Below, piece by piece: positions 24,305 to 48,755 of a DNA stretch of 64,000 nucleotides. The stretch spans positions 192,001 through 256,000 of the forward strand of contig CAWCKW010000012.1 in assembly GCA_963796285.1 (NCBI GenBank), in the 5' to 3' direction. The stretch's first letter is position 1. Every line of letters begins with the position of its first letter. The position numbers were made by a program, and so were the translations under genes. The notes under the pieces are model-generated. The model saw only the letters and a program-made list of their open reading frames with translations, made no database searches and had not been told where the DNA came from. Origin of the DNA: Nitrospirota bacterium (GTDB taxonomy: Bacteria; Nitrospirota; UBA9217).

Positions 24305-25294
24305 ATGGAAAAGTTCATCTCCATCGTCATTCCGAATTATAACGGGAGCGCTACCATTGGGAAATGTCTCGATGCAGCGTTCGCTTCGCGATACAGCAAC
24401 TTTGAAGTTATTGTCGCAGATGATTGCTCCACCGATGATTCCATCGAAATCATCAGACGATTTCCCTGCAAACTCGTGAGGCTTGAGAACCATTCGGGCG
24501 TGTCCACGGCAAGGAATCAAGGGGCGCAAAACAGCCGGGGCGAACTGCTGTTCTTTACCGACGCCGACTGCCTCATCCGGGAAGACGCGCTGTCCCTCGC
24601 AAACGCGGCAATGGAGCAGCACGCGAATGCGGTCATCGGTGGGACCTATACTCCCTTACCCCTAGATACCGACTTCTTCAGCGTGTTCCAATCCCTCTTT
24701 GTTCATTACTCAGAGACAAAAAACAAGGAACCGGATTATATCGCAGGACACGCCATGGTCATTGACGCGGATGTGTTCAGGAAAAGCGGCGGCTTTGATG
24801 AACATTTTCTCCCGCTGTTTGAGGATGTGGATTTCAGTCACCGGCTCCGCCGGACCGGTTGCCGATTGGTCATGCAGCCCGGGATCCTGGTGACACACAT
24901 TTTTAATTTTACGTTCCTGAGATCTCTTCGGAACGCTTACCAAAAATCGAAATACTGGACCAGGTATTCCCTTACGAACCACGACGTGCTTGCTGACTCG
25001 GGCACGGCTTCGGTGGAACTCAAAGTTACCGCTGCCTGTTTGTTCCTAACCATCCTGCTTGCGGTCCTCTACTTTATTCGGAGAAATCCCTGCTATCTGG
25101 GCCTCATACCACTCCTGTTTGCTTTCGATCTTTATTTCATAAGAGGCACGATCTCATTCTTTTCCCGGGAAAAGGGAACCAGGTACTCCATTCTTGCGGC
25201 GTTGTACTACATGTGGGTCTACGCCCTTGCGGTGGGAGTGGGTGCGTTCATGGGAATCGTGAGTTGGATTTTAGCGAGGCGCGACACGGTTTAG
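24305..25294 (+). CDS. Glycosyltransferase family 2 with C-terminal TM helices
   Basis: SIVIPNYN, DDCSTD, ARNQGA, FTDAD and ED.D motifs plus a hydrophobic C-terminus. Confidence 0.92.
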   Translation: MEKFISIVIPNYNGSATIGKCLDAAFASRYSNFEVIVADDCSTDDSIEIIRRFPCKLVRLENHSGVSTARNQGAQNSRGELLFFTDADCLIREDALSLANAAMEQHANAVIGGTYTPLPLDTDFFSVFQSLFVHYSETKNKEPDYIAGHAMVIDADVFRKSGGFDEHFLPLFEDVDFSHRLRRTGCRLVMQPGILVTHIFNFTFLRSLRNAYQKSKYWTRYSLTNHDVLADSGTASVELKVTAACLFLTILLAVLYFIRRNPCYLGLIPLLFAFDLYFIRGTISFFSREKGTRYSILAALYYMWVYALAVGVGAFMGIVSWILARRDTV

Positions 25295-25400
25295 TATTTG
25301 TGGACTGTAATGGTATGCAGGGGAAACAGAGAAAACGCGCACGCCGTGGGTTGTGGCTACTCAGTATAATCAGGATGTTTACAGAGACTCATGGGTTTGA

Positions 25401-25500
25401 TCTTTTCCTGAAGATGTCCTTTGCCACCCAGAGCCAGAACAGACTTCGTGCCGCCTTAACGAGGGACGCGAAGTCATCCCAGTTTCGGACCGAACATATC
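25401..25500 (-). pseudogene. Orphan copy of the 3' end of the radical SAM gene at 33985-35423
   Basis: 25421-25493 matches 34011-34082 with 2 substitutions and 1 indel; encodes SVRNWDDFASLVKAARSLFWLWVAKDIF. Confidence 0.85.
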
Positions 25501-25525
25501 CTGCAAGTTTTGCGACGATGCCGAG

Positions 25526-26937
25526 TTAAAGGAAAACTCTGAATGCCGTGCGAGCGTATTCGCGGATAGTCCACAGCGACGACATGTTTCTCAAATGCTG
25601 CGCGAGGATGCGCGGCCTCAGGTAGAAACGGCGATAGGCGCGGCGTGGCGCCTGGTAAAGCTGCTCATTGGTGACGTATTTGAGACGATTTATCGGCTGG
25701 CTCATGCTGTCATACAGACGCCAGTCCTCCGTCAGCGGCAGGCTCTCCGCTCGGTTGCGATTAAATTCCTCAGTGCCGGGCAAAGGCACCATCACCTGGA
25801 AGGTGGCGCTGTCCAGATCCAGTTCCCGTGAAAAGGCAATCGTCTCTTCTATGGTTTCCGGGGTCTCGTCGACGAAGCCGAAGAGAAAATAGCCGTGGCC
25901 GAGATCCCAGCCTTGCGCGTGTTCCTGACTGCCTGCGCCACACGCTCTTTTGTGATCTTCTTGATCGCCATGAGCATTTTTCATTACCGACCTCGATACC
26001 ATATTGCACGCGGCGGCATCCAGCTTTGTACATCGCGACGAGCATCTCGGTGTCAATTTCGTTCACCCGGCCGTTGCAAGTCCGGGCGATATCAAGTCCT
26101 CTTTCGCTGATCAACTGGCACAGCTCCATCAGCCGTTTCTCGGTCGCAAATCATCGACGGGTCCCGGAAGGAAAACATGGTTACGCCGAAATTACGGTTC
26201 AGCCATGCAAGCTCGTCGACGATGTTTTTTGCGCCGCGGAGCCGGTATTGTTTGCCCTGTTGCATGGACACATCGCAAAAACAGCAGCCGTGCGGGCAGC
26301 CACGGCCGCTAATGATGCAGGAGAAATTCCCCTTTTCCCCCCAGGTGGCGAAGGGATTGTACATGACTGGGTTGGGCAGCAGATCATGAGCGGGAAAAGC
26401 GAGTTGATCAGGATTGGTGTTAAAGTGACGCGTCGAGGTCACCCTCGGAACGCCGTTCTTTCTGACGACGATCCCTGGCACCGATAGAAAGTCTCCGCCG
26501 GTCGCGGCAACCCGGCAAATTTCCTGCATTGTTTCCTCGCCCTCGCCGATGAGGGCCAGGTCTACAGAGGGGCTTGCGGAAGCGTCAAGAGGAAGCGCGA
26601 TAACGTGCGGATCGCCGACCACAACCAGAACTCCTGGGTCGATCTTCTTGGCCATCTGTGCAGCCTTTTCCGCATCGGCCCATTGCAGCGTCAAAGCACT
26701 TATGCCGACGAGGGAAGGTTTGAAGGCCCGGATTCTCGCCCGCAGTTCCTTGGCCGGAGCGCCGAGGGAGTAAGCGTCAATTACCTCAACGGGAAATCCC
26801 GCAGCCCGGACGGCGGCCGCTACATAGGCCAAACCGAGCGGTTGCGTTGAGTGCACGGGAAGTTCAACGCGGCCGTTCCATAAACCCCGCGGTGGCGTCA
26901 TGAGCAGGACCTTGAAGGCGGCGCCCTTGTCCTGCAT
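25526..26937 (-). CDS. B12-binding (class B) radical SAM protein, frameshifted in this sequence
   Basis: PLGLAYVAA B12-binding N-terminus, GEGE, RGCPHGCCFC, YGIEVG; continues over three overlapping ORFs (26092-26937, 25770-26129, 25526-26056). Confidence 0.85.
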
Positions 26938-27043
26938 TGCCTTAGACTTTATTTAGTTTTTGTTGATCATAATTCAGAAGGACAGTGGCCGGGTATTTTC
27001 GAATTTCGAGAAGTGCCATGGATCATATTTTACATGATACTAG

Positions 27044-28601
27044 GAGTCTGTCGGACTTAACGATCTGATCCGACGACTATTTATCAAATTTCTGAGATCA
27101 TCAACGTTTTGATCGGTATTCACCAATCAAAGTAACGGGTGCTTTGTTCTTTCTTATCGCTATCAACTTAAGGCATGCAGCCTTTTTAGGTTCCAGGCGA
27201 TGCAGACCAAGTCCCATTCGCCTTGTACCGACTCAAAGCCTCGCAGCAGGAACTGCCGGAATCCCATGACTGCCTTGATGATGCCGAAGACCGGTTCCAC
27301 CGTACTCTTACGCTTGGCGTAGAGCTTCTTCCCGGCCTGTGTCCGGAGCCGGTGCTTCATCTTGGTAACCGCATCTGCATCATCCGGCAGCAGGCAACGG
27401 TTCACGGAACCGATCCATGAGCGGCTGGTTGTGCTGATCCCGGCCAAAGGCAAGGTACGGTGTGATCTTGTTTTTCTCGCAAGCGCCGACGTTGGTTTCG
27501 CTGTAGAAGCCGTTGTCAGTAAGGACCGCATCTACCGTGCCGAGGGCTTCCGGTAAAGCCGCGAGATTCGCGATCGCTGGTTCCAGTTCGCGTTTGTCGT
27601 TTGTCTGTTGGCTCACATGGCTGGTGACGATCATCATTGATTCGATATCGACGCCAGCCTGGGCATTATAAGCCTGCTCAAAGCCGCCGCCGGACTTTTT
27701 CATGATGCGGGATTCACCGTCCGTCAGGTTGACCTGGTCTTTACCCTTGACGCCGGGTTCAGGCGGTTGCGGTTTAGGGCCACGAGGCTTTTTGCCGGTC
27801 TTCTGTTCTTTTTCGGCGCGCTCGGCCAGGTTCTTGTCGTACGGCTTCTTGTTCCTGGGCGTAACGCTCGGCGGCACGCCGTTCAATCTCGGCCTTGGCG
27901 TCGGCTATGGCCTTGAGCCGCTCTGTCCGCCGGGACAGTTCTTCCGGGATGTTCATCCCATCCGGGATATCGGCCTGATCGGCAGCTTCTGCTTGGCGAA
28001 GGAGTTCGGCCACTTCCGCCTTGAGCTGCTCTTCGAGCTTGCAGGCGTGAGCGTAACTCAAGGCTTTATGCTTAGAGGCATTCGCCTTGACCTTTGTCCC
28101 GTCCAGGCTGACTGTGCCCAGCTTCAAGACGCCCGTCTGCTGGGCGATCAGCAGGATCTGGATGAACAGAGCTTTGAGCTGCGGCAGAAACCGCTTCCGG
28201 AAAACGGCGATCGTATCGTGGTCCGGATGAGCATTGGCAGCAATAAACCGGAACGCTATTGAATCATAGGTGCTCCGCTCCAGTTTCCGGCTGGAGAATA
28301 CCCCAGTGGCGTATCCGTAGAACAGGAGTGCCAGAAGCATCTCCGGATTATAGGGCTGCGATCCGCGTCCTGCATACGCTGCTTTCAAAGAGCTAAGATC
28401 GAGCTGGTCAACGATCTCGACGACAAATCGGGCCAGATGATCTTCGGGCAGCCAGTCTTGAAGAGACGGCGGCAATAAATAGAGTGTTGACTGATCATAG
28501 TCGATAAATTTTGCGCTCATCTTGTTCAACCTCGTTATGTGCGATTGAAAAGCTGAGCGACTATAGCATATTTTATTTAGTCGGGAAAGTCCGACAGACT
28601 C
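27044..28601 (-). mobile_element. IS1182-family insertion sequence (transposase 27163-28529, frameshifted)
   Basis: 15-bp terminal IRs GAGTCTGTCGGACTT / AAGTCCGACAGACTC, flanking CTAG duplication (27040-43, 28602-05); motifs LPEDHLARF, SSRKLE, DGTKVKANAS, YNAQ and R...VEPVFG.IK. Confidence 0.93.
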
Positions 28602-28604
28602 CTA

Positions 28605-29452
28605 GAACCTATCTCAAAATTAGATTTTTCTATGTGATCTAAGTTGGGTGTGGTATTATCGCGCATGGCATTGCGTCTAACAGACGAACAATGGGAACGA
28701 ATCCGGGAAAATTTTCCCGAAGAGAACATTCCCGATGGTCGCCCAGGACGCAAGCCAGTACCCGCGCGTCATGTCCTCGAAGGTGTGCTCTGGATCCTGA
28801 ACACCGGAGCGCAGTGGCACATGCTTCCGCAATGCTACCCCAACTACAAGACCGTCCATCGTCGTTTTCAGCAGTGGTGCCGCAATGATGTACTGCGTGA
28901 TGCACTATGCCAGTTGGCAAACGCACTGCGCGAGTCCGGGGCACTGGACGAATCCGAGTGCTACATCGATGCTACTTTCTCTCCGGCCAAAGGCGGGGGG
29001 GAGGAATCGGCCCAACAAAGCGTGGAAAAGGCGTGAAAATCATGGGTATTGTGGATCGCAATGGTCTGCCGCTGGCCATCACCACGCATGCTGCCAATCA
29101 CCATGAAGTCACACTTGTTCAGCTGACCTTTGACTTCTATATGATCGAAGCAAAGCCAGAGAAACTGATCGGCGACAAAGCCTACGATAGCGATCGCCTG
29201 GACGAGCTGAAAAGAGATAGGGTATGGAGATGATCGCGCCGCACCGTCACAAGAAGAACCGCGTACTCAAAGACGCAAGACGGTCGAGCGCTTCGCCGCT
29301 ACAAGCGTCGCTGGATCGTCGAACGATTCTGGTCCTGGCTTCATTGGCATCGTCGTCTCGTTGTCCGCTGGGAATATTACACGACGAACTTTCTTGGCTT
29401 TGTTCAGCTTGCTTCAATTTGTATCTTACTCAAGCAATTTTGAGATAGGTTC
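28605..29452 (+). mobile_element. IS5-family (IS427-like) insertion sequence with two-ORF transposase
   Basis: IRs GAACCTATCTCAAAATT / AATTTTGAGATAGGTTC flanked by TA; ORF A LTDEQWERI...G.QW..LP..Y....TVHRRF..W; ORF B with GDKAYDS and RW.VER; G-run near 28995 at the ORF junction. Confidence 0.9.
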
Positions 29453-29723
29453 TAATACAAACGCACTGAGAATTGTGACAAAGTCAAAATAGTTGCCTCA
29501 TGTAATCAATGTGTTAAGATGACTCACTGTATCAATTTATTCTGCGTTTGCATTAACATGATGTATTTCAAAATCAAGGCATAAGAACAGGCCTTGATCC
29601 CGTCCGCTAAAAAGGTTATGATCTTAAAGAAAGGCCAACCTTTTGCACGAATCAAAACTGAGAAAGCGGTGGATTAAAAAAGATTCAAAATTCAAGCTGT
29701 CGGTTTGTGTGGTACTGTAAATC

Positions 29724-30805
29724 ATGTATACGCCCTTAAAGACGCGCCGTCAATCCTCTGGAAACGAAAACCTATCCAGCTTACGTTTTTCCTGACTAGG
29801 CATTGCAACTCGAAATGCCCGTTCTGCTTCTATCTCCGGAACTCTGATGCGGCACCAACCGGGAATCAGGAATTGTCCGTTGAAGAGATCGGCAAAATTT
29901 CCGTGTTCCCTCGGGCCGCTTTTTTGGGTCGCCTTCTCGGGCGGCGAGATCTATCTGCGGGACGATCTGGCCGAGATCAGCAAGATATTTCATGACGTCA
30001 ACAAGCCGCCCGTCATCCTTTTCTCAACGAACGGAATGCTCCCGTCCGTGATTCGTTCGAAGACCGAGCGGATCCTGAAAGAATGCGGAAACAGCGTCAT
30101 CGCCGTGAAGCTCTCCCTTGACGGGGTCGGCAAAGATCATGACGCGGTGCGTGCGACGCCGGGGAGTTTTGAAAAGACTATCGAGACGTACAACCTGCTC
30201 GAACCGCTTCTGTCCGAATATCCCCATTTCGAGCTCGGCATCAACACCGTTTTCTGTTCCGAGAACCAGGACAAGATGGACGGGCTGATCGATTTCGTTG
30301 CCGGGTTGAAGAATATCGGAACGCACACGATTTCGCTCGTCCGGGGAAATCTGTCCGAGGGCCGGTACAAGGAGGTCGATCCGGGAAAATACCGGGCCGC
30401 GATCGGGAGGCTCGGAAAGAACCTGACGGACGGATGCGCGAAGACGTATCGCTTCGCGGGAGCGCGCATCAAGGCCGCGCAGGATGTCCTCCAGCGGAAG
30501 CTGATCCATCGCACGCTGCTCGAACAAAAAAGGGTGATACCGTGTTATGCTGGAAGACTGAACGTGGTGGTGACGGAAACAGGAGAGGTGAAGCCGTGCG
30601 AGATGCTGCGCCGTCTCTTTTGGAAACGTGAGGGATGCAGGCTATGACATCGAGGAAGGTCCTCAATTCAGCAAAGGCAAAAGAGATCGTCCGTGCGATA
30701 ACACAAGGAGAATGTTTCTGCACCCATGAATGCTACTTCATGACGAATATTCTGTTCAATCCAGGCCTGTACCCTCGGCTTTTTCAGGAATATGTGAAAA
30801 TATAA
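29724..30805 (+). CDS. Radical SAM/SPASM(Twitch)-domain protein, frameshifted
   Basis: CNSKCPFC, FSGGE, STNG, SLDG, CYAGR...G.V.PCE and C-terminal CFCTHEC ending at TAA 30803-30805. Confidence 0.85.
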
Positions 30806-30810
30806 CTGTA

Positions 30811-32189
30811 TTACGGTCCGCGTTTAATCTTTTCCGCCGCGTTCATTCCCGACTCGATCGCATGGTCCATATTGTAATACCGGAACATACCGGACCGGCC
30901 GGCGTTATGGAGGTTCTCGAAGCCTGCGAGATACGCGGCGATCTCATTAAAATATTTATCGTAGCCGACCTCGAACAAAGGATATGCTTTCGGGACCCTC
31001 ACGATGACGCTGTCAAGCACTTCGCCGCGATTGATGAAGCCGAGCCGCTCGAGATGGTCAATCCCGATATCGGCGATCGTGCGGTCGTCTGCATTCCAGA
31101 TAACGTCGTCTTTGTAACAGAAAAATTCGAGCACGAGGAGGGTCTTCCCCTGAGGGGCCATAGCCTTGCTCCAGTTGGTCGGCTCGTGGAGTCTGCCGAA
31201 GGGGATCGCCCGCTCGGGGATATAGATCCATGTCTGGTCCGTCACTTTGGACCTGTCGATCATCACGGCCGCTATCACAAGGTCCCTGAACCTGAGTTTT
31301 GACGTTGCAGCCATCACCCGTTCCGGGGGAGCCGGGTCCAGCATTTTCACGAGGGCGGTAACCGGCATACTTGAAACGAATTGGCCCCCATACTCTCTGC
31401 GCGAGGCCCCGTCGCTATTCACAATGATACTTTCTATACTGCCACCCGCATGGTTGATCTGCTCGACCCGGGTCCGGGTAAAGACCCTGCCCGACTTCTC
31501 TATTCCATCCTTTAAGACCTCTGCGATGCGGCCGATACCGAGCCGGGGATACATAAAAAGAATCGACGAGTGTTGGAAACTCCCCGGTCTTTTTTTTGAA
31601 CGCGGCATTTACTATGGCCTTGGAAAGAGAAAGTCCCTGGATTCTCCAGGTCCACCCATTCCGCGCTGATCCGGCCGCAGTCGATCCCCCAGACCTTCTC
31701 GCTGTATTCCTTGAAGTAGATATCGAACATGGTCCGTCCGAAATGTGAGATCACCCAGTCTTCGAGTGAAGCCGTTTCCGGATCCCAGAAAATCCGTTTC
31801 ACCCGCTCGATGCCGTAACTGCCGAGTATCCTTAAGGTCGTCGGAATCCCTATGTCGAACGCCGCATTGAGCGGTTTCAAGGGATATTCGAAGTACTTCC
31901 CCCGCAGGAAGATACTGCTCTTGCGCGGCACGTTGATCAGCTCACCGTGCATCAGGTTTTTTACGAAGGCATCGATCCGCGGGTCTTTCGTGAAAAAACG
32001 ATGGCCGCCGAGATCGAACCGGTATCCGAGATGCTCGATCGTTCTCGAAATACCGCCTACGGCGCGATCGGCTTCGAATACGGAAACCGGAATACCCGCC
32101 TCGGCAAGGACATATCCCGCGGAGAGGCCCGTAAGACCGCCGCCGAGGATAAGAACTTCGTTTTTCGCTTGAGTCAAGACATCCTCCAA
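30811..32189 (-). CDS. FAD-dependent oxidoreductase (HemY/UGM-like), paralog 1, frameshifted
   Basis: ILGGGLTGL, VGGISRT, FDLGGHRFF, KVWG and GRSGMFRYYNMDHAI; split near 31610-31650. Confidence 0.88.
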
Positions 32190-32221: not shown

Positions 32222-33932
32222 TTACCAGAAGATCGTGACGAGCGTTTGATATTCATAGAACGGGCACGCGACTGAAAATTCTTTCGACCTGGTGTACTTT
32301 CTAGTTCTTTCCTTAATTGACTGCGGCACGATATCCCTCGTGCGGCCGGAAATCACCGCAATCGCTTTCTTCTCCACGGCGGCCGCGACGTCAGGGAGAT
32401 AATAAGAAGGGTTCTTATATTCCCAACTGAACCGAAAGGTGGACAGATTAACATCCATATCGGCAGAAGATGCCCCGGGTTCATAGTTGAAGATAATTTT
32501 TTTCTTCGTGAACAGATGCAGGATCGGAACGGCAATCGCCGGATTGATAGGGTATTCCCGTTCCGGAACAGGAAAGACCTCGACGACATCTATCCCCAGT
32601 GTATCAAGAAATGCGCCTGCCTCCTGAATATTTACCGAGCTCAATTGTTTCATATAGGGGATATAGGCGAAGAAACACAGCGCAAGGGCCGCGGCAACTG
32701 AGCACGAACGGCTGCTTTTACAACACGCCGGTCCTTGAGAACAGTAAGGGCGTATGCAGCCATAAGCGCCAGCATCGGGAAAGCGGGAAGCATATAGCGG
32801 ATACGTTTTATCTGAAAAATGACGACCAGGAGGGGCAGCCAGGCAATTATCAGGTATTTCAGGTCCCGCCTCACGCCGGCCACGAAAAGAGAAGCGAACG
32901 CCGCTATCGAGATTATCGGGCTGATCTGAAATAAAAAGGTGGAAACAAAGCTCTCAGACCACCGGTCGAGCCCCGGTTTCTGATAAGAAAGCAGAAGTCG
33001 TATCTGTTCCGCAACGACGTCATGTGTGAGGATCACAGCAATGCCGACCAGGAGACAAGAAAAAAGAAATACCAAGAAAGTATTTTTGAGTATCAGCCTG
33101 CGTTGCTTCGGATGCATCAGATAATAGCTGAGCGATATAAGCGGTAAAACCGAGAGCAGAAAGAGCGCTGAATACTTGCAAAAAACGGTAAAAACAACGG
33201 CGATTGAAGCCCCGACGGCAGATCCTGACCGCCTGATACGATTGCTTTCAAAAAGAGAGAGATGGAGAGCATCAGAAAAAACATAGTCGGAACGTCAACA
33301 AGCATAAGCGGCGTCATCATGATGAGATACGGCATCCCGAGCAGTAAGACGCCTCCGATAAACCCCGTGTCTTCATCCCAAAGCATTTTGCCGATAAGCC
33401 AGGTGAGGACCGTCGTATTCCGAAGAGAAGCACGGTGAATATTTGGGTAAAAATCCGCGTTTCGCCGAAGAGCCTGAAGATTAATCCATAAAAAAAGGGG
33501 ACCGCGGGGAGGTGGTAAGGCTGGTATCTCTCTTCCCCATTCCTTCAAGAAAAAGGCGACGCCGTACTGTTCGAGATATTTCGCCTGTTGGAAATACCGC
33601 GAAGCATCTATATTCACCTGCGGTATCGACCAACAGAGCGCGGCCACGGCTGTCGCGGCGGCAAAAAGAAAGAGCGGGCGGACGCGGGCGGGCAGGGAAA
33701 TACGGGAAATGGAAATCAGGGACGCGAAGAGCAACGCCGCCGATAAAAAAATAAAAAATCGGGCAGGTTTGGCCCCGGACAGAAAAATGATATTCCAACT
33801 GGCAAGACTGTTGTCATCATACCGCCGAAGAAAAAACAGCGCCGTGGTCATGAGTATGGTGAAAAGCGCGGGAATCCAGGCTGTTAATTTTGCCGTTGGT
33901 TCGTGTCGGTCGATGAAATCATTATAGTCCAA
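32222..33932 (-). CDS. GT-C fold (ArnT/PMT_2, GT39-like) membrane glycosyltransferase, paralog 1, multiply frameshifted
   Basis: D.SRYF.QAK.LE.YG, TPLMLVDVPTMFF, many TM segments, RY.LPAFP, NPA.AVP.L.L, ending TIFW; start approximate. Confidence 0.75.
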
Positions 33933-35423: not shown

Positions 35424-35473
35424 TACGTTCTAACCTCGTTTTAAAATAATATGTCCAGGTCTCGGGTCTCGGG

Positions 35474-38794: not shown

Positions 38795-38919
38795 TTTTTT
38801 CGCACCCCTCGTAATATACTAGTTAAGAAGTTCATAACAATTGCGTTAAAAACGTGAAAAATGAAACGAAGATAATCTAAAGCGTGAACTTTAGAAAATC
38901 GCATGTTTGGATATTTATG

Positions 38920-38947
38920 TTGACTTTAGATAACCATTTTATATAAT
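38920..38947 (+). promoter_or_regulatory. Sigma70-type promoter of the porin/Ig-lipoprotein operon
   Basis: TTGACT-16 nt-TATAAT in the AT-rich divergent intergenic region. Confidence 0.65.
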
Positions 38948-39097
38948 GCACACGTTGCATTCTTGAGCGCTATTTGAAAAGGAAATACCTTTCTATTGAC
39001 AGCAAAACTTGGAGATAAACTGGATATAAAGCCGACTGTTGATAATAAATGTTCTGACGATTCCGAAGGGGCGAGACTATTTCTTAAAGGAGGACTG

Positions 39098-40296
39098 ATG
39101 ATGCGCGTTGTAAAGGAGTTGATGATGGGGATGTTGATCAGCGGTTTTGTCCTAATCGGACTGGGGAGTGAAAATGCCGCGGCCTATAACGTTATTGACA
39201 ACGGCAATGGCGGATTCCTGGACATCGATTACCAAGTTCAGGCGCGAGAGGCATTCAGCAACATCGGCGGCGGACCGACCGGAGCGGCAGCTCTAACAAT
39301 TTCTATTTACGGAGAAACCGCCTCAGCTTTCTCGGCAACGTAATCAGACCTACGGCTTTGCGCTGGAATATGAATACAACGGCGGAACCAGGATCGGCGA
39401 TTTCACAGTACAGCAGCAGGCCACCGACTATACCGTTATCATCCTGGATGCCTATCTGACCGCGGACTATGGCGACTTCCTGAAATTCCGCGTCGGCAGA
39501 ACAAAGCAGTTGCTCACCCGCGAGGTGTCGGAAGGCTGCTTTGACCCCCTCTCGATGGATCGTTCCATCTTTATCGGAGGCCCCTTCACCACGGACAATT
39601 ACAATGGCGGGGACAAAACGACACGTGATGTCGGCGTCGCGGCCATGGGGAATTTATTTTCCGATGTCTTCCAGTATCGCCTGGCCATCATGCAGGGCAA
39701 TAAATATTCCTCAACCGACAAACCCGACAACGTCGGGTACCGGTATACCGGCCGCGTGCATCTGTCCCTCCTCGATCCCGAGACCGACTGGGGTACAAGG
39801 GCACCTACCTGGGGAAGAAAAAAGTGCTCACTCTCGGGGCGGGGTATGAAATGGAGCCGAATGCGGTCTATTCCGTCGGAACCACAGGCGCCGAAAAATA
39901 TACTGCATATACCTATGACCTCTTCTTCGAATATCCCACTCAGATGGGCACCTTCACGCTTTCGAGCGCCTATCTGAAGCAGGATTTCAACGAGGCGGGC
40001 ATGCGCGGCGTTCAAGACGCTACGGGCGTCAACGGAGAGAAGAACGGCTATTACGGCAAGGTGGCCTACATGCTGGGCAAATACCAGGTGTACGGCCGCT
40101 CGGAAAAGTGGTCCTTTGCAAACCTCAGCGGCGTCTCCGATCAGCATGTAGACTGGAATGCTGCAGGAATCAACTATTATATAAATGGACAAAACCTGAG
40201 GCTCACCCTCGAAATGCAAAAAATAGCCTTTAGCAAATCGTCGGCGTCGGCCAGGGATTTCAAACAACACTATTCCAGTTTCAGGCAAGATTTTAA
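39098..40296 (+). CDS. ExtI-like outer-membrane porin (OprO/P-related), frameshifted
   Basis: RBS AGGAGG, signal peptide, RE..E.C..PL..DRS.FI, YRYTGRVHLSLLDPE, GEKNGYY.K, INYYI.GQNL.LT; reconstructed C-terminus FQFQARF is a beta-barrel signal. Confidence 0.75.
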
Positions 40297-40321
40297 CTTA
40301 TAGCGATTGGAGAATTCCAAA

Positions 40322-41251
40322 ATGAAAAAAGGTAAAGACAAGAAAGTTTTTGCGGTTATTCTTGCACTTTCGGCATTGATAGTAACCATAATCGCGGTTC
40401 ATGGTTGCGCTATTTCATCTTATGAAGGGCTTAAAATAACCTCTATTTCGATAGAACCCGTCAACAACACTGCAGCAGCAGGTACTGTTACGATCGTGGC
40501 GCAGACCGTGCAGCAGTTCAAAGCAACCGGTCTTTACTCCGATTCGACGACGACCGAACTCTCTCCGTCGAGTACCTGGAGTACGTCGGATGCAAATGTC
40601 GCTACCGTATCCGCTACAGGACTCGCCGCTGCCGTAGCGCCGTCAGGAACCTGCACGATTACAGCGACAGCTCAAGGGGTGAGCGCATCTATACGGCTGA
40701 CCATCAAAAACCTGGCGATCCAATCGATCACGGTATCTCCGGGTACGGCGACCACGAACAAGGGGTTCACTCAGCAGTTCACGGCTATGGGACTTTTCAG
40801 TGACGGAACCGATACAATGAACCAGGACATCACAACCCTGGCAACATGGAGTTCCACAACAACGTCGGTCGCCACTATTGACGCTCAGGGAAAGGCCACA
40901 GCAGTTACTGCGGGTACAACCGATATTACCGCACAATGGAACGGCGTAACCTCCAATGCGGTTACCTTGACCGTTTCGAGTGGGACATTGACGGCGATCG
41001 CAATTACGGCATCTTCTTCTACGTCCGTACAGACGGGAAATACAATCCAATTGACGGCAACCGGCACCTTTGAGGACGCTACCACTCAAGATATAACCTC
41101 CCAAGTTGTGTGGAGTTCGGAGCGCCCTGATATCTACCGTAGACAATTCCGGCTGGTTACGACGATCTCTGCGGGCCGTGCAACAATCACGGCCACGGCG
41201 GAAGGGATAACGGGCAGTATTCAGATAACCGCACTCCATATCGGGCACTAG
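40322..41251 (+). CDS. Lipoprotein with three bacterial Ig-like (Big_2) domains
   Basis: Lipobox VHGC; three repeats of SI.V.P...QF.ATG..SD....T...TWSS....VAT....G...A...GT..ITA. Confidence 0.88.
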   Translation: MKKGKDKKVFAVILALSALIVTIIAVHGCAISSYEGLKITSISIEPVNNTAAAGTVTIVAQTVQQFKATGLYSDSTTTELSPSSTWSTSDANVATVSATGLAAAVAPSGTCTITATAQGVSASIRLTIKNLAIQSITVSPGTATTNKGFTQQFTAMGLFSDGTDTMNQDITTLATWSSTTTSVATIDAQGKATAVTAGTTDITAQWNGVTSNAVTLTVSSGTLTAIAITASSSTSVQTGNTIQLTATGTFEDATTQDITSQVVWSSERPDIYRRQFRLVTTISAGRATITATAEGITGSIQITALHIGH

Positions 41252-41446: not shown

Positions 41447-43179
41447 ATGAAAAAATCAGTAAAAGCTACCTTTCTCGTTGTTTTATCGGTTGTCGTCGTA
41501 TATAGTATGATGCTGTTCTCTGGTTGCAGCAGCAGTAGTAGTAGTGACAACGGCGGCGGCACCCCGGTGCTCCAGACAATCACAGTGACTCCTGCGGTCA
41601 AATCCATCCAGACCGGCAGCACGGCGCAGTTCACGGCAAGCGCAGTGATGTCCGATGGTACGGCTACGACTCCCGCCATAACGTGGAGTTCATCGGCTAC
41701 TAGCGTTGCGACGATCAACGCAGCGGGCCTTGCCACTGCTGTTGCGGCCGGCACGACGACCATCACGGCAACATCGGGCAGCGTCAGCGGCACGGCCGTT
41801 TTGACGGTGACGACGACGACTCTCACGTATAGTGGCACGCTCTATCAGGCCTCCCAGAATGGCGGTCATATCGGTGTGTTTTCGGTGACGATCAATCCGT
41901 CGAATACCACCTCGCCTATTACGGTGGACACAGCGAGTGCATCAAAGATCCAGCTCAACGGATCGCCAAGCGACACTGCTAATCATACTGTTTTCCACGA
42001 TATAAAATTTGATGACGAGACTAACCCCACTAAGATTTACTATTCCGCGATCATGTCCAGGCCCGGAACTACCGGGGTTGCCGACATCGGCTACGTGGAT
42101 TTGACCCAAACCAGTTATGCTACGACCAACAACGGCATAAACTCGGTAATCGATATTGACTATGCGGGCACCCAAAATATTGCGTGGGCCTTATCTCTGA
42201 TGGCGCCTGAGGAGTTCGGCACCACATCGGCCATTGAATACTGCGCATCGGGAATGGACAAGACGAATGGTTATTTTCTGCCGATGTCGATGAGCTTCCC
42301 CGCGTACGTTGATGCTGTTCCGCTGGCGAAACTCGCTACCGGCGCAAAGGGCAGCGTTAGCAACGAACTTATGAGCGGAAGCGCGGACTTTACCAGAACG
42401 TATGTCTGGCAGATCGACCACGCCATGGATAATCTCAATCCACCCAGCAACTTCGGTCAGCCCCGCTGGCATTTATTCACGGCACTTCCAATCCTGCCGG
42501 CGACAAGGTTTATATGGCGATGAACGTCGTAAGCGGCCTCTCCACTACGACCAACTTGGCGGGTATTGTCAGAACTTACCTTGTCAATGCAAGCGATCTT
42601 GAATCAGCCAGCTCCACGACGCTCGGCATCAGCACCATGACGCCTGAGAAAGTTCTTTCGAGCGCTTCCTACACCGTGGCACCGTCCGATTCAACCACGA
42701 GCGGCGACGGATCGCTCCAGGGGACGATTGTGTATCGCGCCTCCTATACGCCTGATGACAAATATATCCTGCAATCAGGATCCGACCGCTTGCTGATCTT
42801 CAAAGCCAATGACCTGAGCATCTATGCCGACACCGGTACCACCAGTAACGCTAACTCCGTAACAAAACCGGGAGCCATCACTGCTGGATTGGGAGCGGGC
42901 ACGGACGGCGGCATTGAAGTACACGATGTCATTTCGACTCCGGATAGCAAATATGCTATCCTGTCGGTTCGGTACTATGCAGACTCAACCCAGGCTGCTA
43001 TTGGGGGAGCTGGGGTACCGGGGATCAAGACCAGCGGTGTTCAGCTTTACGATATTGCCAACAAGCAGTTCATCGGCGGCGTTGTACCGACCTGCGGTTC
43101 GAGTGCTAGTTCTTGCCATGCCGCGACCGGCGACTTTACGACCCGCGCGACGTGCGGCATTCTTTTCAAGAAAAACTAG
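41447..43179 (+). CDS. Lipoprotein: Big_2 domain plus probable beta-propeller domain with C-terminal CX6CH; one frameshift near 42460
   Basis: Lipobox FSGC, poly-Ser linker, one Big_2, TPDDKY/TPDSKY propeller-type repeats, and motifs GGH, FHD, YC, FIHG, VHD and CGSSASSCH. Confidence 0.75.
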
Positions 43180-43203: not shown

Positions 43204-43235
43204 AAGGGGGGGCGGGATAACCGCTCCTCCTTTTT
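43204..43235 (+). terminator. Intrinsic terminator
   Basis: G-rich/C-rich stem GGGGGGGCGG-GATAA-CCGCTCCTCC followed by TTTTT. Confidence 0.7.
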
Positions 43236-43501
43236 ATTGTGTGGGGAACTCCTGGGTACTTCTATAATGCTCCTGTCCAGATACCGGGCAAATCAGGAAA
43301 GAGGCATCGTCCGTGAGCGATAGACGCGCCTTTCAGTGCCCTGCAGATTTTCACGATAAGAAAGCACCGGGAACCTTATGCCGCCGCTGCGCGAACCGCA
43401 CGCTTGCGCTGCAGAGCGAAAGAATTGCTGCCCAGATAACTGAGGCATTATCCGCGCGTGCACAAACATACAAAAAAGCAAATTAAAAAGCTAATTAAAA
43501 C

Positions 43502-43530
43502 TTGACAATTTGCTCAAGCGAAAGTAACAT
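43502..43530 (+). promoter_or_regulatory. Sigma70-type promoter
   Basis: TTGACA-17 nt-TAACAT upstream of RBS AGGAG and ATG 43587. Confidence 0.6.
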
Positions 43531-43586
43531 CGAGTGCTAACGTACTCCGCAGTGATGCCGTATTGTTCGTAAAAAAGGAGAGAATC

Positions 43587-44042
43587 ATGGTGCTTCATAG
43601 AAAGATCACTTTCATTGTTACTGTTTTTCTGTTGGCACTCCTTTTCGGTCCGTCTCTTCATGCAGGCAGCCTTGAAACGTCAGGAATACAACAATCGCCG
43701 ATATTCGTTTCTATGCCCGGACCTGGAAAAATACCGATCAATAGCGACTATTATATAATCCTTGGTTTCGACAAGGAACCGAAAATAGGTACCGTGATCC
43801 TGAGGGTCAGTGTTTACACCAAAGACGGGAATAAGGACACCTCACTCGAAATTGCCGCTGATTCCGGCATGCCTTCCATGCGAGGGGCCCATGACACAGG
43901 TGACCTCCCCATGCAACTTTCACGAAAGAAAGAATATCTTCTCCCTATCAATATCGTGATGCCCGGAGAATGGGAAATCCGGCTAACGGTCAGAAAAGCC
44001 GGGAAGGTTATTTACCGTGGCAGTTATCGGTTCGATGTATAA
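43587..44042 (+). CDS. Periplasmic YtkA/FixH-like protein
   Basis: Signal peptide, D.GMPSMRGAH and ..MPGEWEIRL.V motifs. Confidence 0.7.
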   Translation: MVLHRKITFIVTVFLLALLFGPSLHAGSLETSGIQQSPIFVSMPGPGKIPINSDYYIILGFDKEPKIGTVILRVSVYTKDGNKDTSLEIAADSGMPSMRGAHDTGDLPMQLSRKKEYLLPINIVMPGEWEIRLTVRKAGKVIYRGSYRFDV

Positions 44043-45082
44043 GACCTTATCTTGTGTTCGTATTTTCTGCTTTTTGCGGCAGAGCGCTCGGGCTTCGGAT
44101 CACCTTCTTTATTTTGAGGCACAGGAAATGTTCGGCTACTCATCATCGCTAGGGAAGACGGTGCCATACTCGATCAATCCCCGATCTGAAATGCAGCAGC
44201 CCAGTCTGGGGTTCGATTATCTGCAGCGGATTTCAGGTGAACCAGGGGATGTGGCTATATTTGCTCTCCAGTGTCGTCTTGCTGTGACTCCGGGTTGACC
44301 AGGTTCCGGGCTACAGATCCATCCGCGCTGAGCTTTAAAGGGAGCAAGATGGCTTTAAATGCAATTGCAGATATACAATGCTTATTTAAAAGTGAAGACG
44401 CCGTGGACGTACGTATGGATCGGACACAATCGTCCCGCGTTCGGGCTTTCATCAAATCTCGACAGCCATGGACTGTTGCTTGCGACCCTTGAAATGCGTC
44501 GGTATTTATGACCGGGACTGGGGGGTGGGGGGCATACAAGGATTTTTCCTGGGGCGATATTGCGGCCAGCGTCACCTGCGGGTCGGGGATGCCGATCTAT
44601 CAAAGCGTTCCGGGAACGCCGTTCGATAGCCATTATATGACTGCTGCGCGGGTCTCCTACGGTGTGTTGGAACGGGACAATTTCAATGCCGGATTTTCAC
44701 TGGGCTAAGGCCGGACCCTTCAGACCGTAGGATACACGCTTATGGACATCGAAGCCGCGTTCGATGCGGCTGGCGGGTGCGGACTTGACCATGCTCCCGG
44801 ACAACCTTGAGCACCGATTTGAACTGCTCAGGGAGAGTGGCTGGGGGAGGATGTTCGCGCCGTTCTACCGGTTTGGCGTGAATCTTGACCAGGAAGGACG
44901 GTCCAAGATCGAGACCCAGACGATATACTGGAAATACGCCGGAGAAGAGGATCACCAGACTGCATTGTGTTTTTTCGTTCTGGCTGACTCCGGATCTCAC
45001 GGTGCGGACCGAGTATATTTACGATCACCAAATGAACGACAACAGGTTCCTGCTGCAGATCTATTACTATAGCCCGATATGA
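44035..45082 (+). pseudogene. Probable outer-membrane beta-barrel, broken by frameshifts and a nonsense codon
   Basis: Fragments LYFEAQ, PSLGFDYLQR, QIYNAYLK, WIGHNRPAFGLSS, ARVSYG and C-terminal LLQIYYY across several frames; in-frame TAA at 44706-44708. Confidence 0.6.
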
Positions 45083-45112
45083 ATCGTCATCAGGAAAGGG
45101 AAAAAACTACCG

Positions 45113-45864
45113 ATGAAGACGGATAAACACACTGACGAAAATGCCCGGTCCCGGACGGGCCACTCAATGTTCTTCTGTTGTTCACGGCGGAATATTCGGG
45201 GAGGCGCGGCGCCGGTATCAGAGTGCCGTTACCGCGGGCCTCATCGTCATGCTGTTGAGTTCCGGCCCGGCATTTGGCGCGGTCGGGTGCGATCTCAATG
45301 ATCCCGACCGCGATGTGGCGAGGATCTTCCCGGAATCAACGGGGTATAAGGCGGTTTACCTGTCCGTGCAGCAGCAGGGAGGCGAAAAACTCCTCGCGAC
45401 GATTGAGGCGGAGCTGGGCGACAAGTTTCACGGTCTGTACGAGACGATCGACAATCCCTTATACGATTTACGAAATATATGCGAAAAAAAAGAAGGTCGG
45501 TTATATCCACGGCGTCAACCAGAAAGGACAGTTCGGCGGCATCCAGGTTTTTCTTGCCCTCGACCTCGACGGGGGGATCAAGGCATTCTACATCCAGAAA
45601 ATGACCAGCCAATATGCCGGGAAACTGCGCGCTGCTGAATTCGGGAAGCAATTCATCGGCTTTACGCTCAAAGATTTTGAACAGTATGACGTCGTTTCGG
45701 GAAAGGCGGCAGGCAAGGTCGGGGAGATCAGGAACCCGGCGCCTAAGGCGGAGGCGGATTTCCGGGCGATCCTGCGGGCCACGAAGAAAAACCTCATCCT
45801 GATGAAGGAACTTGTGTATGCGCCGCAATCCCCGTCGTCGAAGAACGGAGCAGCTTCGCAATGA
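45113..45864 (+). CDS. Secreted protein with FMN-binding-like (RnfG/NqrC-type) fold, frameshifted
   Basis: AVGCDLNDPDRDV..IFP, VGYIHGVNQKGQFGGIQVFLALD..G.I...YIQ and F.KQFIG.T. Confidence 0.55.
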
Positions 45865-47053
45865 TCACGAAATTCCAGGTAGCCTATAAAAATCTTCTGC
45901 GGAAAAAGATCCGAAGTCTCCTGACCCTCGTCGGCATCGCTCTTTCCGCCTGGGTGCTGGTGAGCCTTCTCGGGTTCAATCACGGCTTTGAAACCGCGCT
46001 GAACAAGGACATCGACAACATGGGTTTTCAGATGATGGTCATGGCCAAGGGCTGTCCCTACGAGGCCGCGACCATGATGCTGAAGGGCGGCACCGGGCTG
46101 AAATATATGGATCAATCGATCAGGCGATACCATCAGGAAAGAGCCGGGGGTGGAGAAGATCACGCCGATGCTGATGGCGGCCGTATTTGATCCGAACAAG
46201 GGTGAAAGCGGCGGCATCGCCGCATACTTCGGCGTGGAGCCGAAAAGTTTCAGCGAGATGAAGACCTTTCTCAAATTCAGGCAGGGAGGATGGTTTAGCA
46301 AGCTGAACTCCTACGAGGCGGTAATGGGATATGAAGCCGCCGAGCTTGAACAGCGGGAGGTCGGCGACCTGATCCTCATCCCCGAAAAGAACGTCCAGTT
46401 CAAGGTCGTCGGCATCCTGAACGGAACGGGAACCCAGGACGACGGAACGATTTTTGTGCCCCTCGGGACGCTCCAGAAAATATTCGATAGAAGTCGATGA
46501 ATTGACAACGATCGGGGTCAAAGTCAGAAAGGACGCCGACATCGCCCGCATCGAGGAGAAGCTCTATGCGCTGCCGGACGTCCAGGTGGTGAGCCTGTCC
46601 CAGGTGAAGGAGACGATCATGTCGCTTGTTTCCACGGCGAAAGTGCTGGTACTCTCCATTGCGATCATCGCGATCCTGATTGCCATGGTCGGGGTCGTCA
46701 ACACGATCCTGATGTCGGTCCATGAACGGTTCCAGGAGATCGGCATTTTAAAGACCATCGGCGCCATGCCGCTGGGACATATTCCAAATCATCTGGATCG
46801 AGACACTGCTCCTCTGCACACTTGGAGGCATACTCGGCGTATCATGGCGCTGCTCCTCTCGGATAACGGAGCTGGTGATCGCGCACCATCCTGTCTTATT
46901 CGCCTTACGGAGGTCTGGTAATGATGACCATGAAGCTGGTCCTGTTCACGCTGGTGCGATCTGGGTATAGGGATCCTCAGCGGACTCTATCCGGCCTGGA
47001 AAGCGGGCAGAATCAGGCCACTCGAGGCGATACGGAGCGATGTCAACGGATGA
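45861..47053 (+). CDS. MacB/FtsX-family ABC permease, frameshifted
   Basis: KNLLRKKIRSLLTLVGI, NTILMSV.ER..EIGILK.IGA and YPAWKA.RI.P.EAIR. Confidence 0.85.
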
Positions 47054-47814
47054 AACAGGATGATATTTCCATGGAAGCAAATAATTTGACCAAGGTCTAT
47101 ACCATCGCGGAAGCGAGGAGATAACCGCGGTCCATGATGTTTCGCTGAAGATCAACAGGGGGGAATTCGTATCGATCATCGGACCGTCAGGGTCCGGCAA
47201 GACCACTCTGGTCAATTTGCTGGGTTGTCTCGACAACCCGACTCGGGCGAATTGCCCCTCGACGGCAGGAGGATCTTCAGCAGGGAGGCAATAAGCTTTC
47301 GGAGACGCAAGCTGACGGAGATCAGGCGGGAGACGTTTGGATATATTTTCCAGAATTTCTACCTCATTCCGACACTGACCGTGATGGAGAACGTGATGCT
47401 GCCGCTGACCTTTTATCGCAAAGCAGGGCGCCGGGAACGATGTGATGGGACTCTTAAAACTCTTGGGCATCGACCACCGGAAGGACCATCTGCCGGGCCA
47501 GATTTCCGGCGGCGAAATGCAGCGGGTGGCGATTGCGCAGGGCATTGGTGAACAAGCCGGAAATACTGCTGGCCGATGAACCCACGGGAAATCTTGACAC
47601 AAAACGGTCTGCGGAGATCGTATGGATCTTGAGGGAGCTCAGCACAAACGACGGATTGACCATAATCATGGTCACCCATAACCTGAAATTGGCCGGTCAG
47701 GCCGACCGCTTGTTTGAGATGAGAGACGGGTTGATAATTCACGCCCCGACCAACGACGCGGCGACATCCGCGGTCCGCGGCATTGCTTCAAACGATCGAT
47801 CCGGTATATTATGA
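47050..47814 (+). CDS. ABC ATPase (LolD/MacB type), frameshifted
   Basis: [37 protein letters not shown] and VTH. Confidence 0.85.
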
Positions 47815-48755
47815 AAGCACCACAAAAAAGAAAAGTCCGTGCGATCGTTCTCACGCTCGCGGCGACGGCCGTATTTGCGGGATTGGCATCGCTCAACGCC
47901 TGCCGGGTATCTCAATTCGGCTTCTTCAATAAGCTTAACTCCATAACGATCACGCCTGCCAATCCGGTCGTGGCGGGAGGTACCCAATTGCAGTTAAGGG
48001 CCACCGGAGTCTATTTGGATGCCTCCACTCAGGACATGACCACGCTCGTAAGCTGGGCCGCATCGGGACCGATAGTGACTGTCTCCGCAACAGGCCTCGC
48101 AACGGTGGCTCAGGTGACCGCTCCCGATACGTGCACCATCACGGCAACGGAGCCGGGAGGCATTTCTGGCAGCGTGTCTCTGACCATAAAGAACGCACAG
48201 TTGACCGCCATCGACGTATCTCCCGCGAGCGCTGATCTCGACGGCGGGATCATGACCGCTCTCACGGCTATGGGGACGTTCGCAAGCGATGGAGAGACTT
48301 TTCTCCAGGATATAACCGCAATGGCGACCTGGAGCAGCTCCGATGAAGCTGTTGCAACCGTTGATGCAGGCATCGTCACGGGTGTAAACGGCGGGATAAC
48401 CGCTATTACTGCGTCATGGGGGAATATAACATCGAACAATGCCGAAATTACCGTATCGGGCAAATCGCTCGTGTCACTGGATATCAATCCAAAGGATGCC
48501 GTTGTCCAGAGAATGACAGGGATTTTCTTTACGGCCACCGGAACATTCAATGACGGCTCTGTGGTGGATCTTACCCAGTCGGTGACCTGGAGCACCTCGG
48601 ACCCAACGATTGCGAGGATCGGATCGTATAATGCAAATGTGCCGGGGATGACCATAATCACGCTACACATCCCCGGGACGGTAACGATCACAGCAAAGCT
48701 GGGTAATATAACAGCGAGTACAACGTTGACCGCGTCAGCTACGGCACCATATTAG
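47811..48755 (+). CDS. Lipoprotein with three Big_2 Ig-like domains (paralog of 40322-41251)
   Basis: Lipobox LNAC; same three-repeat architecture, including TCTITAT and QDIT..ATWSS. Confidence 0.88.
   Translation: MKAPQKRKVRAIVLTLAATAVFAGLASLNACRVSQFGFFNKLNSITITPANPVVAGGTQLQLRATGVYLDASTQDMTTLVSWAASGPIVTVSATGLATVAQVTAPDTCTITATEPGGISGSVSLTIKNAQLTAIDVSPASADLDGGIMTALTAMGTFASDGETFLQDITAMATWSSSDEAVATVDAGIVTGVNGGITAITASWGNITSNNAEITVSGKSLVSLDINPKDAVVQRMTGIFFTATGTFNDGSVVDLTQSVTWSTSDPTIARIGSYNANVPGMTIITLHIPGTVTITAKLGNITASTTLTASATAPY

Follow-up and report, generated by a model that had tools for sequence, protein, structure and literature searches.

A 24-kb island bounded by purC (PF01259) and lysS, in the 64,000-nucleotide stretch of Nitrospirota DNA analysed here (the window; G000:C12:192001-256000, from an assembly, G000, of 3.58 Mb in 13 contigs that is 96.22% complete with 5.04% contamination), is best explained as a strain-variable mosaic of four separable envelope modules in Thermodesulfovibrionales-type Nitrospirota, a reading to which we give about an even chance. 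We regard the island as a patchwork, some of whose modules recur as neighbours in relatives, rather than as one clearly new machine. Both borders had been proposed in a first-pass annotation made from the sequence alone and were recovered in a Pfam scan of all stop-to-stop pieces of at least 80 aa in the window; lolCE and lolD also flank the island. The first module would consist of a family 2 glycosyltransferase (GT2) with a radical S-adenosylmethionine (SAM)/SPASM enzyme, a GT-C glycosyltransferase, a flavoenzyme resembling UDP-galactopyranose mutase (UGM) and a B12-binding radical SAM enzyme (B12-rSAM) of the HpnJ/AprD4 kind, together with an extra tandem GT-C/flavoenzyme pair, and would make a rearranged or deoxygenated sugar and transfer it on the periplasmic face. 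The second would be an ExtH/ExtI-type cassette in which the rhodanese lipoprotein has been swapped for a Big_2 lipoprotein and a Big_2 plus β-propeller lipoprotein, the third an independent set of YtkA-like, porin-like and FMN-bind-like proteins with a MacB-type ATP-binding cassette (ABC) transporter, and the fourth one further Big_2 lipoprotein. Modules 1 and 2 would be joined functionally if GT-C glycosylates the Ser/Thr-rich lipoproteins. This is plausible as the most economical link between them, because GT-C is the enzyme gene closest to the cassette in each arrangement found and the lipoproteins are rich in Ser and Thr.

The neighbourhoods of these genes in relatives carry the argument. 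Of 401 Nitrospirota genomes sampled, 85 have the B12-rSAM ortholog (counted at E <= 1e-150), concentrated in certain families, and 39 have ExtI; both are found in 25, a co-occurrence that is inflated by shared ancestry. A profile search of species-representative genomes gave 317 relatives of the B12-rSAM, and among those of the best 80 loci that have full 10-kb flanks (35 loci) 6 include ExtI and 7 the propeller. When all 42 ExtI places in the 39 genomes, plus the window, were examined and enzyme genes were counted within the fetched flank, such genes were found near ExtI at 17 of the 42 places (16 of the 39 genomes), in two families and in at least three gene orders: GT-C–flavin adenine dinucleotide (FAD) enzyme–B12-rSAM–rhodanese lipoprotein–ExtI, all co-directional (G005 and G100); GT-C–rhodanese lipoprotein–ExtI facing rSAM/SPASM–GT2; and GT-C divergent from ExtI–Big_2–propeller. 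The link between enzymes and ExtI is weak from the enzyme side and stronger from the porin side, recurrent but optional, with few independent events. The gene-neighbourhood check proposed in the first-pass annotation has a divided outcome, the ExtI places speaking for co-occurrence and the B12-rSAM loci against it.

That annotation had proposed the whole island as a candidate undescribed system in which a methylated or oxidised sugar or cofactor is attached to the exported proteins of the right half, forming a surface complex, possibly for redox or metal handling. We consider this improbable. It is favoured by the recurrence of the enzymes beside ExtI in several arrangements, by the intact presence of the same full architecture in three related loci (L029, L136 and L138), by the conserved His, Cys and Met of the propeller family and by a Met-rich loop in the YtkA-like protein. 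It has to be set against the low counts at fully flanked B12-rSAM loci and against the five-gene block that makes up module 3 (window 43587-47745), which is a recurring unit and stands alone on another contig in G013 (L019:6861-11256, on G013:C1) and two of whose proteins belong to families placed by the Atlas mostly in other phyla, Thermodesulfobacteriota, Aminicenantota and Omnitrophota. Nor was a redox cofactor motif seen: CXXCH is absent from all open stretches of at least 60 aa in 24000-49500, and no cytochrome family was found in the Pfam scan of the window. The relatives of the B12-rSAM are not methylases, the fold matches of the propeller are generic, and the constant neighbour of the propeller is a MacB-type permease, not the enzymes (see below). 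The integrated system is thus supported in part, by the recurrence of enzymes beside the porin, and less so in the unity of the island.

The map below was made with L029, the locus of a related metagenome-assembled genome (MAG; same place as L137), as the intact template. The other comparisons are with C2, a 10.7-kb contig of the same assembly (L025:1-10693), with G004, a same-genus genome whose syntenic locus is G004:C10, and with G013:C1, a contig of another genome. Positions are those of the window.

24233-25294 (+), GT2 glycosyltransferase, intact; PF00535 at 100.7 bits; 60% identity to the L029 ortholog in a single frame.
25401-25502 (-), relic of about the last 34 codons of a gene of the B12-rSAM #2 type; 82% aa identity to the C-terminus of the G004 B12-rSAM, 96% identity to the last 54 bp of C2 and 91% to window 33991-34082.
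25508-26952 (-), B12-rSAM #1, a distant paralog, broken; PF02310 and PF04055; not at this position in L029.
27166-28601 (-), insertion sequence (IS) transposase of the IS1182 family in at least three frames; DUF772 and DDE_Tnp_1_6; NF033551 at 198 and 86 bits on two pieces.
28638-29490 (+), IS5-family transposase in two frames; DUF4096 and DDE_Tnp_1; NF033580.
29735-30802 (+), radical SAM/SPASM enzyme with two to three frameshifts; 79-83% identity to the L029 ortholog in three frames.
30826-32189 (-), FAD enzyme #1, PRK07208.1-4 type, UGM-like, two frameshifts; Amino_oxidase and NAD_binding_8 pieces; 80-90% identity to L029 over three frames (L029 ortholog, NF005548 at 468 bits).
32225-33905 (-), GT-C #1, PMT_2 type, tandem duplicate, two frameshifts; 65-80% identity to the 575-aa L029 ortholog in three frames.
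33991-35426 (-), B12-rSAM #2, the order-wide ortholog; PF04055 and PF02310; a frameshift near the 3' end lets the open reading frame (ORF) continue to 33120; aa identity 99% to C2, 95% to G004 and 81% to L029.
35513-36858 (-), FAD enzyme #2, UGM-like; three single-base insertions relative to C2 (36242, 35765 and 35509).
36891-38707 (-), GT-C #2, PMT_2 type, divergent from ExtI, at least three frameshifts; tblastn matches to the C2, G004 and L029 GT-C proteins.
38708-39097, AT-rich divergent intergenic region; GC 0.349 (38800-39100) against 0.528 for the whole window.
39098-40300 (+), ExtI-family outer-membrane porin with three frameshifts; NF040900 at 191.7 and 125.1 bits on two pieces; 58-75% identity to L029 ExtI.
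40322-41248 (+), lipoprotein with three Big_2 domains (PF02368, three stretches); lipobox VHGC; 31% Ser+Thr; open frame.
41447-43179 (+), lipoprotein with Big_2, six-bladed β-propeller and C-terminal C-x6-CH...C; one frameshift at about 42463.
43587-44042 (+), small exported YtkA-like protein with a Met-rich loop; 55-62% identity to the L029 and G013 orthologs.
43996-45079 (+), porin-like outer-membrane protein, broken; tblastn matches to the L029 364-aa and G013 394-aa proteins.
45210-45837 (+), exported protein of about 220 aa from a widespread hypothetical family, broken; 65-77% identity to a 242-aa G013 protein in two frames.
45858-47050 (+), MacB/FtsX-type ABC permease, broken; 59-88% identity to the G013:C1 permease across frames.
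47097-47745 (+), ABC ATPase of LolD/MacB type with a frameshift at about 47540; tblastn match to the G013:C1 ATPase in two frames; ortholog PF00005.
47811-48755 (+), lipoprotein with two Big_2 domains, intact; PF02368; lipobox LNAC; homolog at the same position in L136-L138.

The gene content reported in the first-pass annotation was largely confirmed: the GT2, the three radical SAM genes (two B12-binding and one SPASM-like), two FAD oxidoreductases, both of the amine-oxidase type, two GT-C genes (by way of intact orthologs), the AT-rich divergent region and the ABC transporter with its FtsX/MacB permease and ATPase are all there. L029 has the gene order of the window (72-82% nucleotide identity), and none of its genes is broken. 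Read in reverse of the window the order runs porin-like (364 aa), YtkA-like (175), Big_2 protein (604), Big_2 (322) and ExtI (422), then divergently GT-C (584), FAD (492), B12-rSAM (509), GT-C (575) and FAD (463), with rSAM/SPASM (360) and GT2 (395) on the other strand; GT-C, FAD and B12-rSAM are spaced by 4-27 bp. The GT-C/FAD pair is tandemly duplicated in the window. In the window GT2 and rSAM/SPASM are separated by an insertion relative to L029 that comprises B12-rSAM #1 and the two IS elements, of the IS1182 and IS5 families, which the earlier annotation had not mentioned.

About 20 one-base frameshifts were found, all of them within 25.4-47.6 kb and none in the roughly 38 kb of flanks: long ORFs are intact at 0.4-24 kb and 49.5-64 kb, and nearly every gene between 25.4 and 47.6 kb is split. 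By comparison with L029 the frame switches three times in ExtI, at least three times in GT-C #2, two to three times in FAD #2 and in rSAM/SPASM, twice in GT-C #1 and FAD #1 and once in B12-rSAM #2 and the 604-aa protein, and the porin-like gene is affected also. A 770-aa ORF that apparently fuses B12-rSAM #2 to GT-C #1 arises because of the frameshift near the end of the former. An alignment of 4.17 kb to L029 (GT-C #1, FAD #1 and rSAM/SPASM; 82% identity) has 11 gaps, nine of 1 bp, one of 2 bp and one of 7 bp (intergenic), none a multiple of three. The window copy might on this evidence be a truly decaying, non-functional island that acquired real frameshifts after IS insertion while the intact C2 supplies the function, and the restriction of the damage to the island, the two IS elements that split the GT2–rSAM/SPASM operon relative to L029 and the intact second copy in the assembly would fit. 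We think this somewhat unlikely, given that every disruption seen is an indel of 1-2 bp, with neither a nonsense substitution nor a larger intragenic deletion, that the correctly framed matches to L029 contain no internal stop codon and that aa identity to L029 stays at about 80% within each frame.

The comparison with C2 bears on the same point. All of its genes are open (FtsX, two propeller-family ORFs, Big_2, ExtI, GT-C, FAD and B12-rSAM), and its identity to the window is 96% over 34030-36854 and 68-75% beyond, and its identity to G004 88-91%. Its ends lie within about 60 bp of the points at which homology between G004:C10 and the window resumes (33994/34030 and 49508), so that by synteny it occupies the same chromosomal position and would be an allele and not a second locus. 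The frameshifts are absent from the stretch of about 99% identity between the window and C2 (B12-rSAM #2) and return as the two diverge; a contamination of 5.04% in the bin also argues against decay. Identity to G004 is 98% for lysS and 96% for lolCE, around the island, and 35-77% for the island proteins. From these comparisons C2 appears to be an alternative allele of the locus in a mixed population, and the frameshift-rich path is probably a poorly covered haplotype with consensus errors, real recent decay being the lesser though appreciable chance. The 92-bp relic of a B12-rSAM 3' end is placed exactly where the frameshift zone starts, which hints at a direct junction with GT2 in the other haplotype; the C2 haplotype may rejoin the main contig either at 34030 or at the 25.4-kb repeat. 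No other copies of the window's IS elements were found in the genome for an indel comparison, and genome-wide flagging of frameshifts by long-ORF coverage did not single out the region, as spurious long frames mask it. The C-terminus of the three-Big_2 lipoprotein (window 41150-41200) has about 16 residues wholly unlike the L029 ortholog in an open frame, probably through two nearby compensating one-base indels. The case illustrates that the path of a minor haplotype through a MAG may be mistaken for a field of pseudogenes.

Turning to the enzymes, the nearest NCBIfam models of the GT2 are MftF-like (TIGR03965, 96.7 bits against a cut-off of 280) and arsenosugar-GT-like, both matched below cut-off, and in Pfam it has Glyco_transf_21 and Glyco_trans_2_3 features. 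Beyond the GT2 of six relatives (e.g. L064:19483-20403, family c23) lies a multihaem cytochrome gene (Cytochrome_C7, Paired_CXXCH) that has no counterpart in the window. The rSAM/SPASM ortholog matches PF04055 with a weak SPASM match, the AhbD and NirJ models being far below cut-off. Both B12-rSAM genes encode a B12-binding domain and a radical SAM core (PF02310, PF04055) and their products are mutually 26-29% identical. B12-rSAM #1 matches only generic BchE, ladderane and HpnR models in NCBIfam. The best model for B12-rSAM #2 is HpnJ (TIGR03471), matched over the full length with 205-209 bits (cut-off 577.6), and the best solved structure is the diol dehydratase AprD4 (6fd2, E 1e-25); no sulfur-insertion radical SAM family came near its cut-off. 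To judge from these nearest known kin, which rearrange or dehydrate sugars and do not methylate, B12-rSAM #2 would be no methylase, and the methylating role given to class B enzymes in the first-pass annotation is not supported by them. The possibility that the tailoring genes belong to the known hopanoid pathway was rejected, no squalene–hopene cyclase (PF13243) being found in the 96.22% complete genome and the HpnJ score lying far under the cut-off. The HpnJ model has 24 matching places in the genome, and several B12-binding radical SAM genes lie together at G000:C12:1460628-1476027, among them a closer HpnJ-like one (425 bits, also below cut-off).

The flavoenzyme belongs to an unnamed NCBIfam family, PRK07208.1-4 (C2 ortholog, NF005548 at 469 bits), on which a literature search by the family name found nothing. 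Its best solved relatives are UGMs of the eukaryote type (4dsg, E 9e-22, residues 34-480 of 500, and 3ute); against the bacterial UGM model TIGR00031 it reaches 51 bits (cut-off 303.75). GT-C was identified from intact orthologs, which score 37.5 (C2), 34.0 (G004) and 38.8 bits (G013) on PMT_2 (PF13231, cut-off 26.1), and the frameshifted window pieces gave no match; no solved structure was found for it by sequence. Across the best 80 B12-rSAM loci, nearly all of them from Nitrospirota/Thermodesulfovibrionales, identity is 65-100%, and the gene is adjoined by FAD in 74, GT-C in 52, rSAM/SPASM in 30 and GT2 in 25. The names attached to 120 B12-rSAM homologs are generic or 'hypothetical', and the flavoenzyme/B12-rSAM pair is a highly conserved family that lacks a functional name. 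The earlier suggestion that the left half builds an unusual sugar is favoured by the UGM-like flavoenzyme, the HpnJ/AprD4-like enzyme and GT-C, which do not speak for methylation.

Several observations weigh against glycosylation of the cassette lipoproteins by these enzymes. On polyprenyl-phosphate models the GT2 reaches only 24.4 bits for ArnC (NF007986, cut-off 529) and 19.2 for PpgS (cut-off 370), so that the polyprenyl-phosphate sugar-loading function suggested for it earlier is not supported by NCBIfam. The ExtI-adjacent GT-Cs fall in two clades only in a quick tree (GT-C #1 being sister to the ExtI-adjacent clade) and therefore represent few independent events, and shared ancestry could explain the adjacency of ExtI and GT-C. 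Finally, the usual order in relatives is two GT9 heptosyltransferases, a DsrE-like gene, a rhodanese with a Sec signal, GT-C, a YeeE-like Sulf_transp gene, Usp, FAD and B12-rSAM, and this context of heptosyltransferases, YeeE-like, DsrE-like and rhodanese genes points to lipopolysaccharide (LPS) or to sulfur chemistry. A search within the window found no rhodanese, Sulf_transp, GT9 or DsrE-like gene. Among loci L030-L104, in most of the Thermodesulfovibrionales-type relatives, the Sec-signal rhodanese upstream of FAD/B12-rSAM bears a CVTGQT active-site loop.

The LPS context invites the explanation that the enzymes modify LPS, lipid A or another envelope glycolipid and that the porin cassette is a neighbour by inherited synteny only. 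Heptosyltransferases of GT9 lie upstream of GT-C in 23 of the 80 loci, the island is flanked by lolCE and lolD, and the Glyco_transf_21 and Glyco_trans_2_3 features of the GT2 are like those of lipid glycosyltransferases. GT-C enzymes of the PMT_2 type include ArnT-like lipid A transferases. The two-clade distribution of ExtI-adjacent GT-Cs and the predominance of B12-rSAM loci that lack ExtI would be expected on the same grounds. Inherited synteny sits less easily with the 16 of 39 genomes where ExtI adjoins the cluster, in varied gene orders and two families, or with G005 and G100, where GT-C, FAD, B12-rSAM, rhodanese lipoprotein and ExtI are co-directional, and we regard the glycolipid explanation as possible but on the unlikely side.

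The sulfur context leads to a different proposal, namely that the flavoenzyme and B12-rSAM, with GT-C, traffic sulfur or selenium across the envelope and that the ExtI cassette is the outer-membrane entry or exit. The canonical order of relatives with its DsrE-like, Sec-signal rhodanese and Sulf_transp genes (the last in 55 of 80 loci) is in its favour, as is the rhodanese lipoprotein that usually accompanies ExtI, and in two papers on Geobacter deletion of extI is reported to impair selenite and tellurite reduction (PMC6148476, PMC5877670). However, the window keeps the enzymes while lacking the rhodanese, Sulf_transp and DsrE-like genes, the only type of solved full-length relative of the flavoenzyme is a sugar mutase, and the sulfur-insertion radical SAM families are all far from their cut-offs; the proposal seems to us very doubtful.

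For the mosaic reading the second module is anchored by the porin. The ExtI model NF040900 (cut-off 150 bits) is matched at 191.7 bits by the window's own piece, at 330 by the C2 allele and at 338 by G004, and the ExtI-like porin of the first-pass annotation is in this way established. A rhodanese-domain lipoprotein is the partner of ExtI at 22 of the 42 places and Big_2 and/or propeller proteins at 10, all of these in the window's family; the remaining 10 have neither partner type, several being at contig ends or weak matches. An ExtH-like rhodanese was not found in the window by tblastn with a Nitrospirota ExtH-like protein or by Pfam. In Geobacter ExtH/ExtI is a pair of rhodanese lipoprotein and porin according to PMC6148476 and PMC5877670, and the former describes the outer-surface lipoprotein as often non-orthologously replaced in such clusters. 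In the window the rhodanese lipoprotein usual beside ExtI is replaced by the Big_2 and Big_2 plus propeller lipoproteins in the manner described in that text. The Big_2 lipoproteins have lipoboxes followed by Ser-rich stretches, and a Ser+Thr content of 23-31% against 11.7% in the flank proteins, as their earlier description as Thr/Ser-rich lipoproteins would have it.

The propeller had been annotated as two proteins, a second Big_2 protein and a separate propeller lipoprotein. Both parts are present, but they are one lipoprotein of about 600 aa split by a frameshift: the sequence matches a single 604-aa L029 protein in two frames and the family profile at 331.5 and 332.2 bits. The earlier call of a propeller with His/Cys motifs is upheld by columns of conserved His, Cys, Met and Tyr, among them those of the C-terminal C-x6-CH...C, and by an AF2 model (pLDDT 85, pTM 0.81), whose predicted fold is a six-bladed YWTD/NHL-like propeller behind Big_2 (1npe_A, Z 23.7, rmsd 2.8 over 258 aligned residues). 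Function could not be taken from the fold, as only generic WD40, YVTN, YWTD and NHL propellers were matched, with NosZ at Foldseek rank 50, and an analogy to NosZ or a Nos accessory protein was dropped for want of sequence support. Neither Pfam nor NCBIfam has a model of the family; about 36 cluster representatives cover the domain, the names of homologs are generic or 'hypothetical', and it occurs in 61 of the 401 sampled genomes. Among 20 loci from the top of the list of these 61 carriers, 17 have an FtsX/MacB permease as the immediate neighbour of the propeller gene, followed by an ABC ATPase in 15 of the 17, and the remaining three are of the window type, in which the YtkA-like, porin-like and FMN-bind-like genes, MacB permease and ATPase follow instead. 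In L139-L155, from several Nitrospirota families, a propeller of about 385 aa is almost always followed by MacB/FtsX permease and ABC ATPase, and in three genomes (L152-L154) the propeller/permease/ATPase trio adjoins lysS–lolCE–lolD. The pairing of β-propeller and MacB is conserved and uncharacterised.

Some of the names given to the third module are less secure. The small exported protein is indeed there, but its match to YtkA (PF13115) is 20.2 bits (E 0.00095), under the cut-off of 25.9, and the G013 ortholog has no match. The second barrel has a porin-like lead from the Atlas to Porin_O_P clusters (0.97-0.98). The protein of about 220 aa called FMN-bind-like has no Pfam match to FMN_bind (PF04205) at E 0.01; the Atlas offers a lead (0.85) to a cluster with FMN_bind in 13% of its members. 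The permease pieces in the window match PF12704 (MacB_PCD, 48.8 bits) and PF02687 (FtsX, 29.5 bits), and the G013 ortholog has both.

The modules could be brought together in a single picture that we put forward as a long shot. In Nitrospirota the ExtI-family porin and its lipoprotein would form a surface device free of cytochromes whose passenger can be exchanged: most lineages would use a rhodanese, and the window a Big_2/propeller protein with a Cys/His site. GT-C would O-glycosylate this passenger, the sugar having been remodelled by the UGM-like flavoenzyme and the HpnJ/AprD4-like radical SAM enzyme. The whole cassette would exist as alternative alleles under diversifying selection, and the window and C2 alleles in one population would point to such selection on an exposed structure. 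A literature search on Thermodesulfovibrionia with radical SAM, glycosyltransferase and outer membrane gave nothing relevant. If the cluster does glycosylate ExtI-associated lipoproteins it would represent a new chemistry of bacterial protein glycosylation and would for the first time offer a way into the function of cytochrome-free ExtI cassettes outside Geobacter.

Each part of the island can be set beside a known system. Two-step periplasmic glycosylation by a GT2 and a GT-C is known from ArnC/ArnT and Ppm1/PMT. The window likewise has a PMT_2-type GT-C and a GT2 in one cluster, with the Ser/Thr-rich lipoproteins as candidate acceptors; it differs in the low scores of its GT2 (24 bits for ArnC and 19 for PpgS), in that no flippase or nucleotide-sugar genes were identified, and in the addition of two radical SAM enzymes and the UGM-like flavoenzyme. 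With the HpnI/HpnJ/HpnK pathway to hopanoid cyclitol ether it shares a GT2 and a B12-rSAM whose best, full-length model is HpnJ, although at 205-209 bits against 577.6, with no squalene–hopene cyclase and with the closer HpnJ-like paralog (425 bits) elsewhere on the contig. The flavoenzyme has eukaryote-type UGMs (4dsg, 3ute) as its best solved relatives over residues 34-480 of 500, but it reaches 51 bits on TIGR00031 (303.75) and belongs to the unnamed family PRK07208.1-4 (469 bits). The transporter resembles MacB and LolCDE in its FtsX and MacB_PCD permeases and LolD-like ATPase, with the propeller adjoining the permease in 17 of 20 loci; unlike in those systems the partner is an uncharacterised propeller family that has no Pfam model, and no adaptor or TolC-like gene was seen. 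The cassette is unlike ExtHIJKL of Geobacter sulfurreducens in that it has neither rhodanese, ExtK/L-type cytochrome nor CXXCH, its partners being the Big_2 and Big_2/propeller lipoproteins, and in that a MacB-type transporter and GT-C genes adjoin it. It is like ExtHIJKL in that its porin passes the ExtI model and adjoins outer-surface lipoproteins, and the Geobacter pairing of porin with rhodanese lipoprotein is seen at 22 of the 42 Nitrospirota ExtI places.

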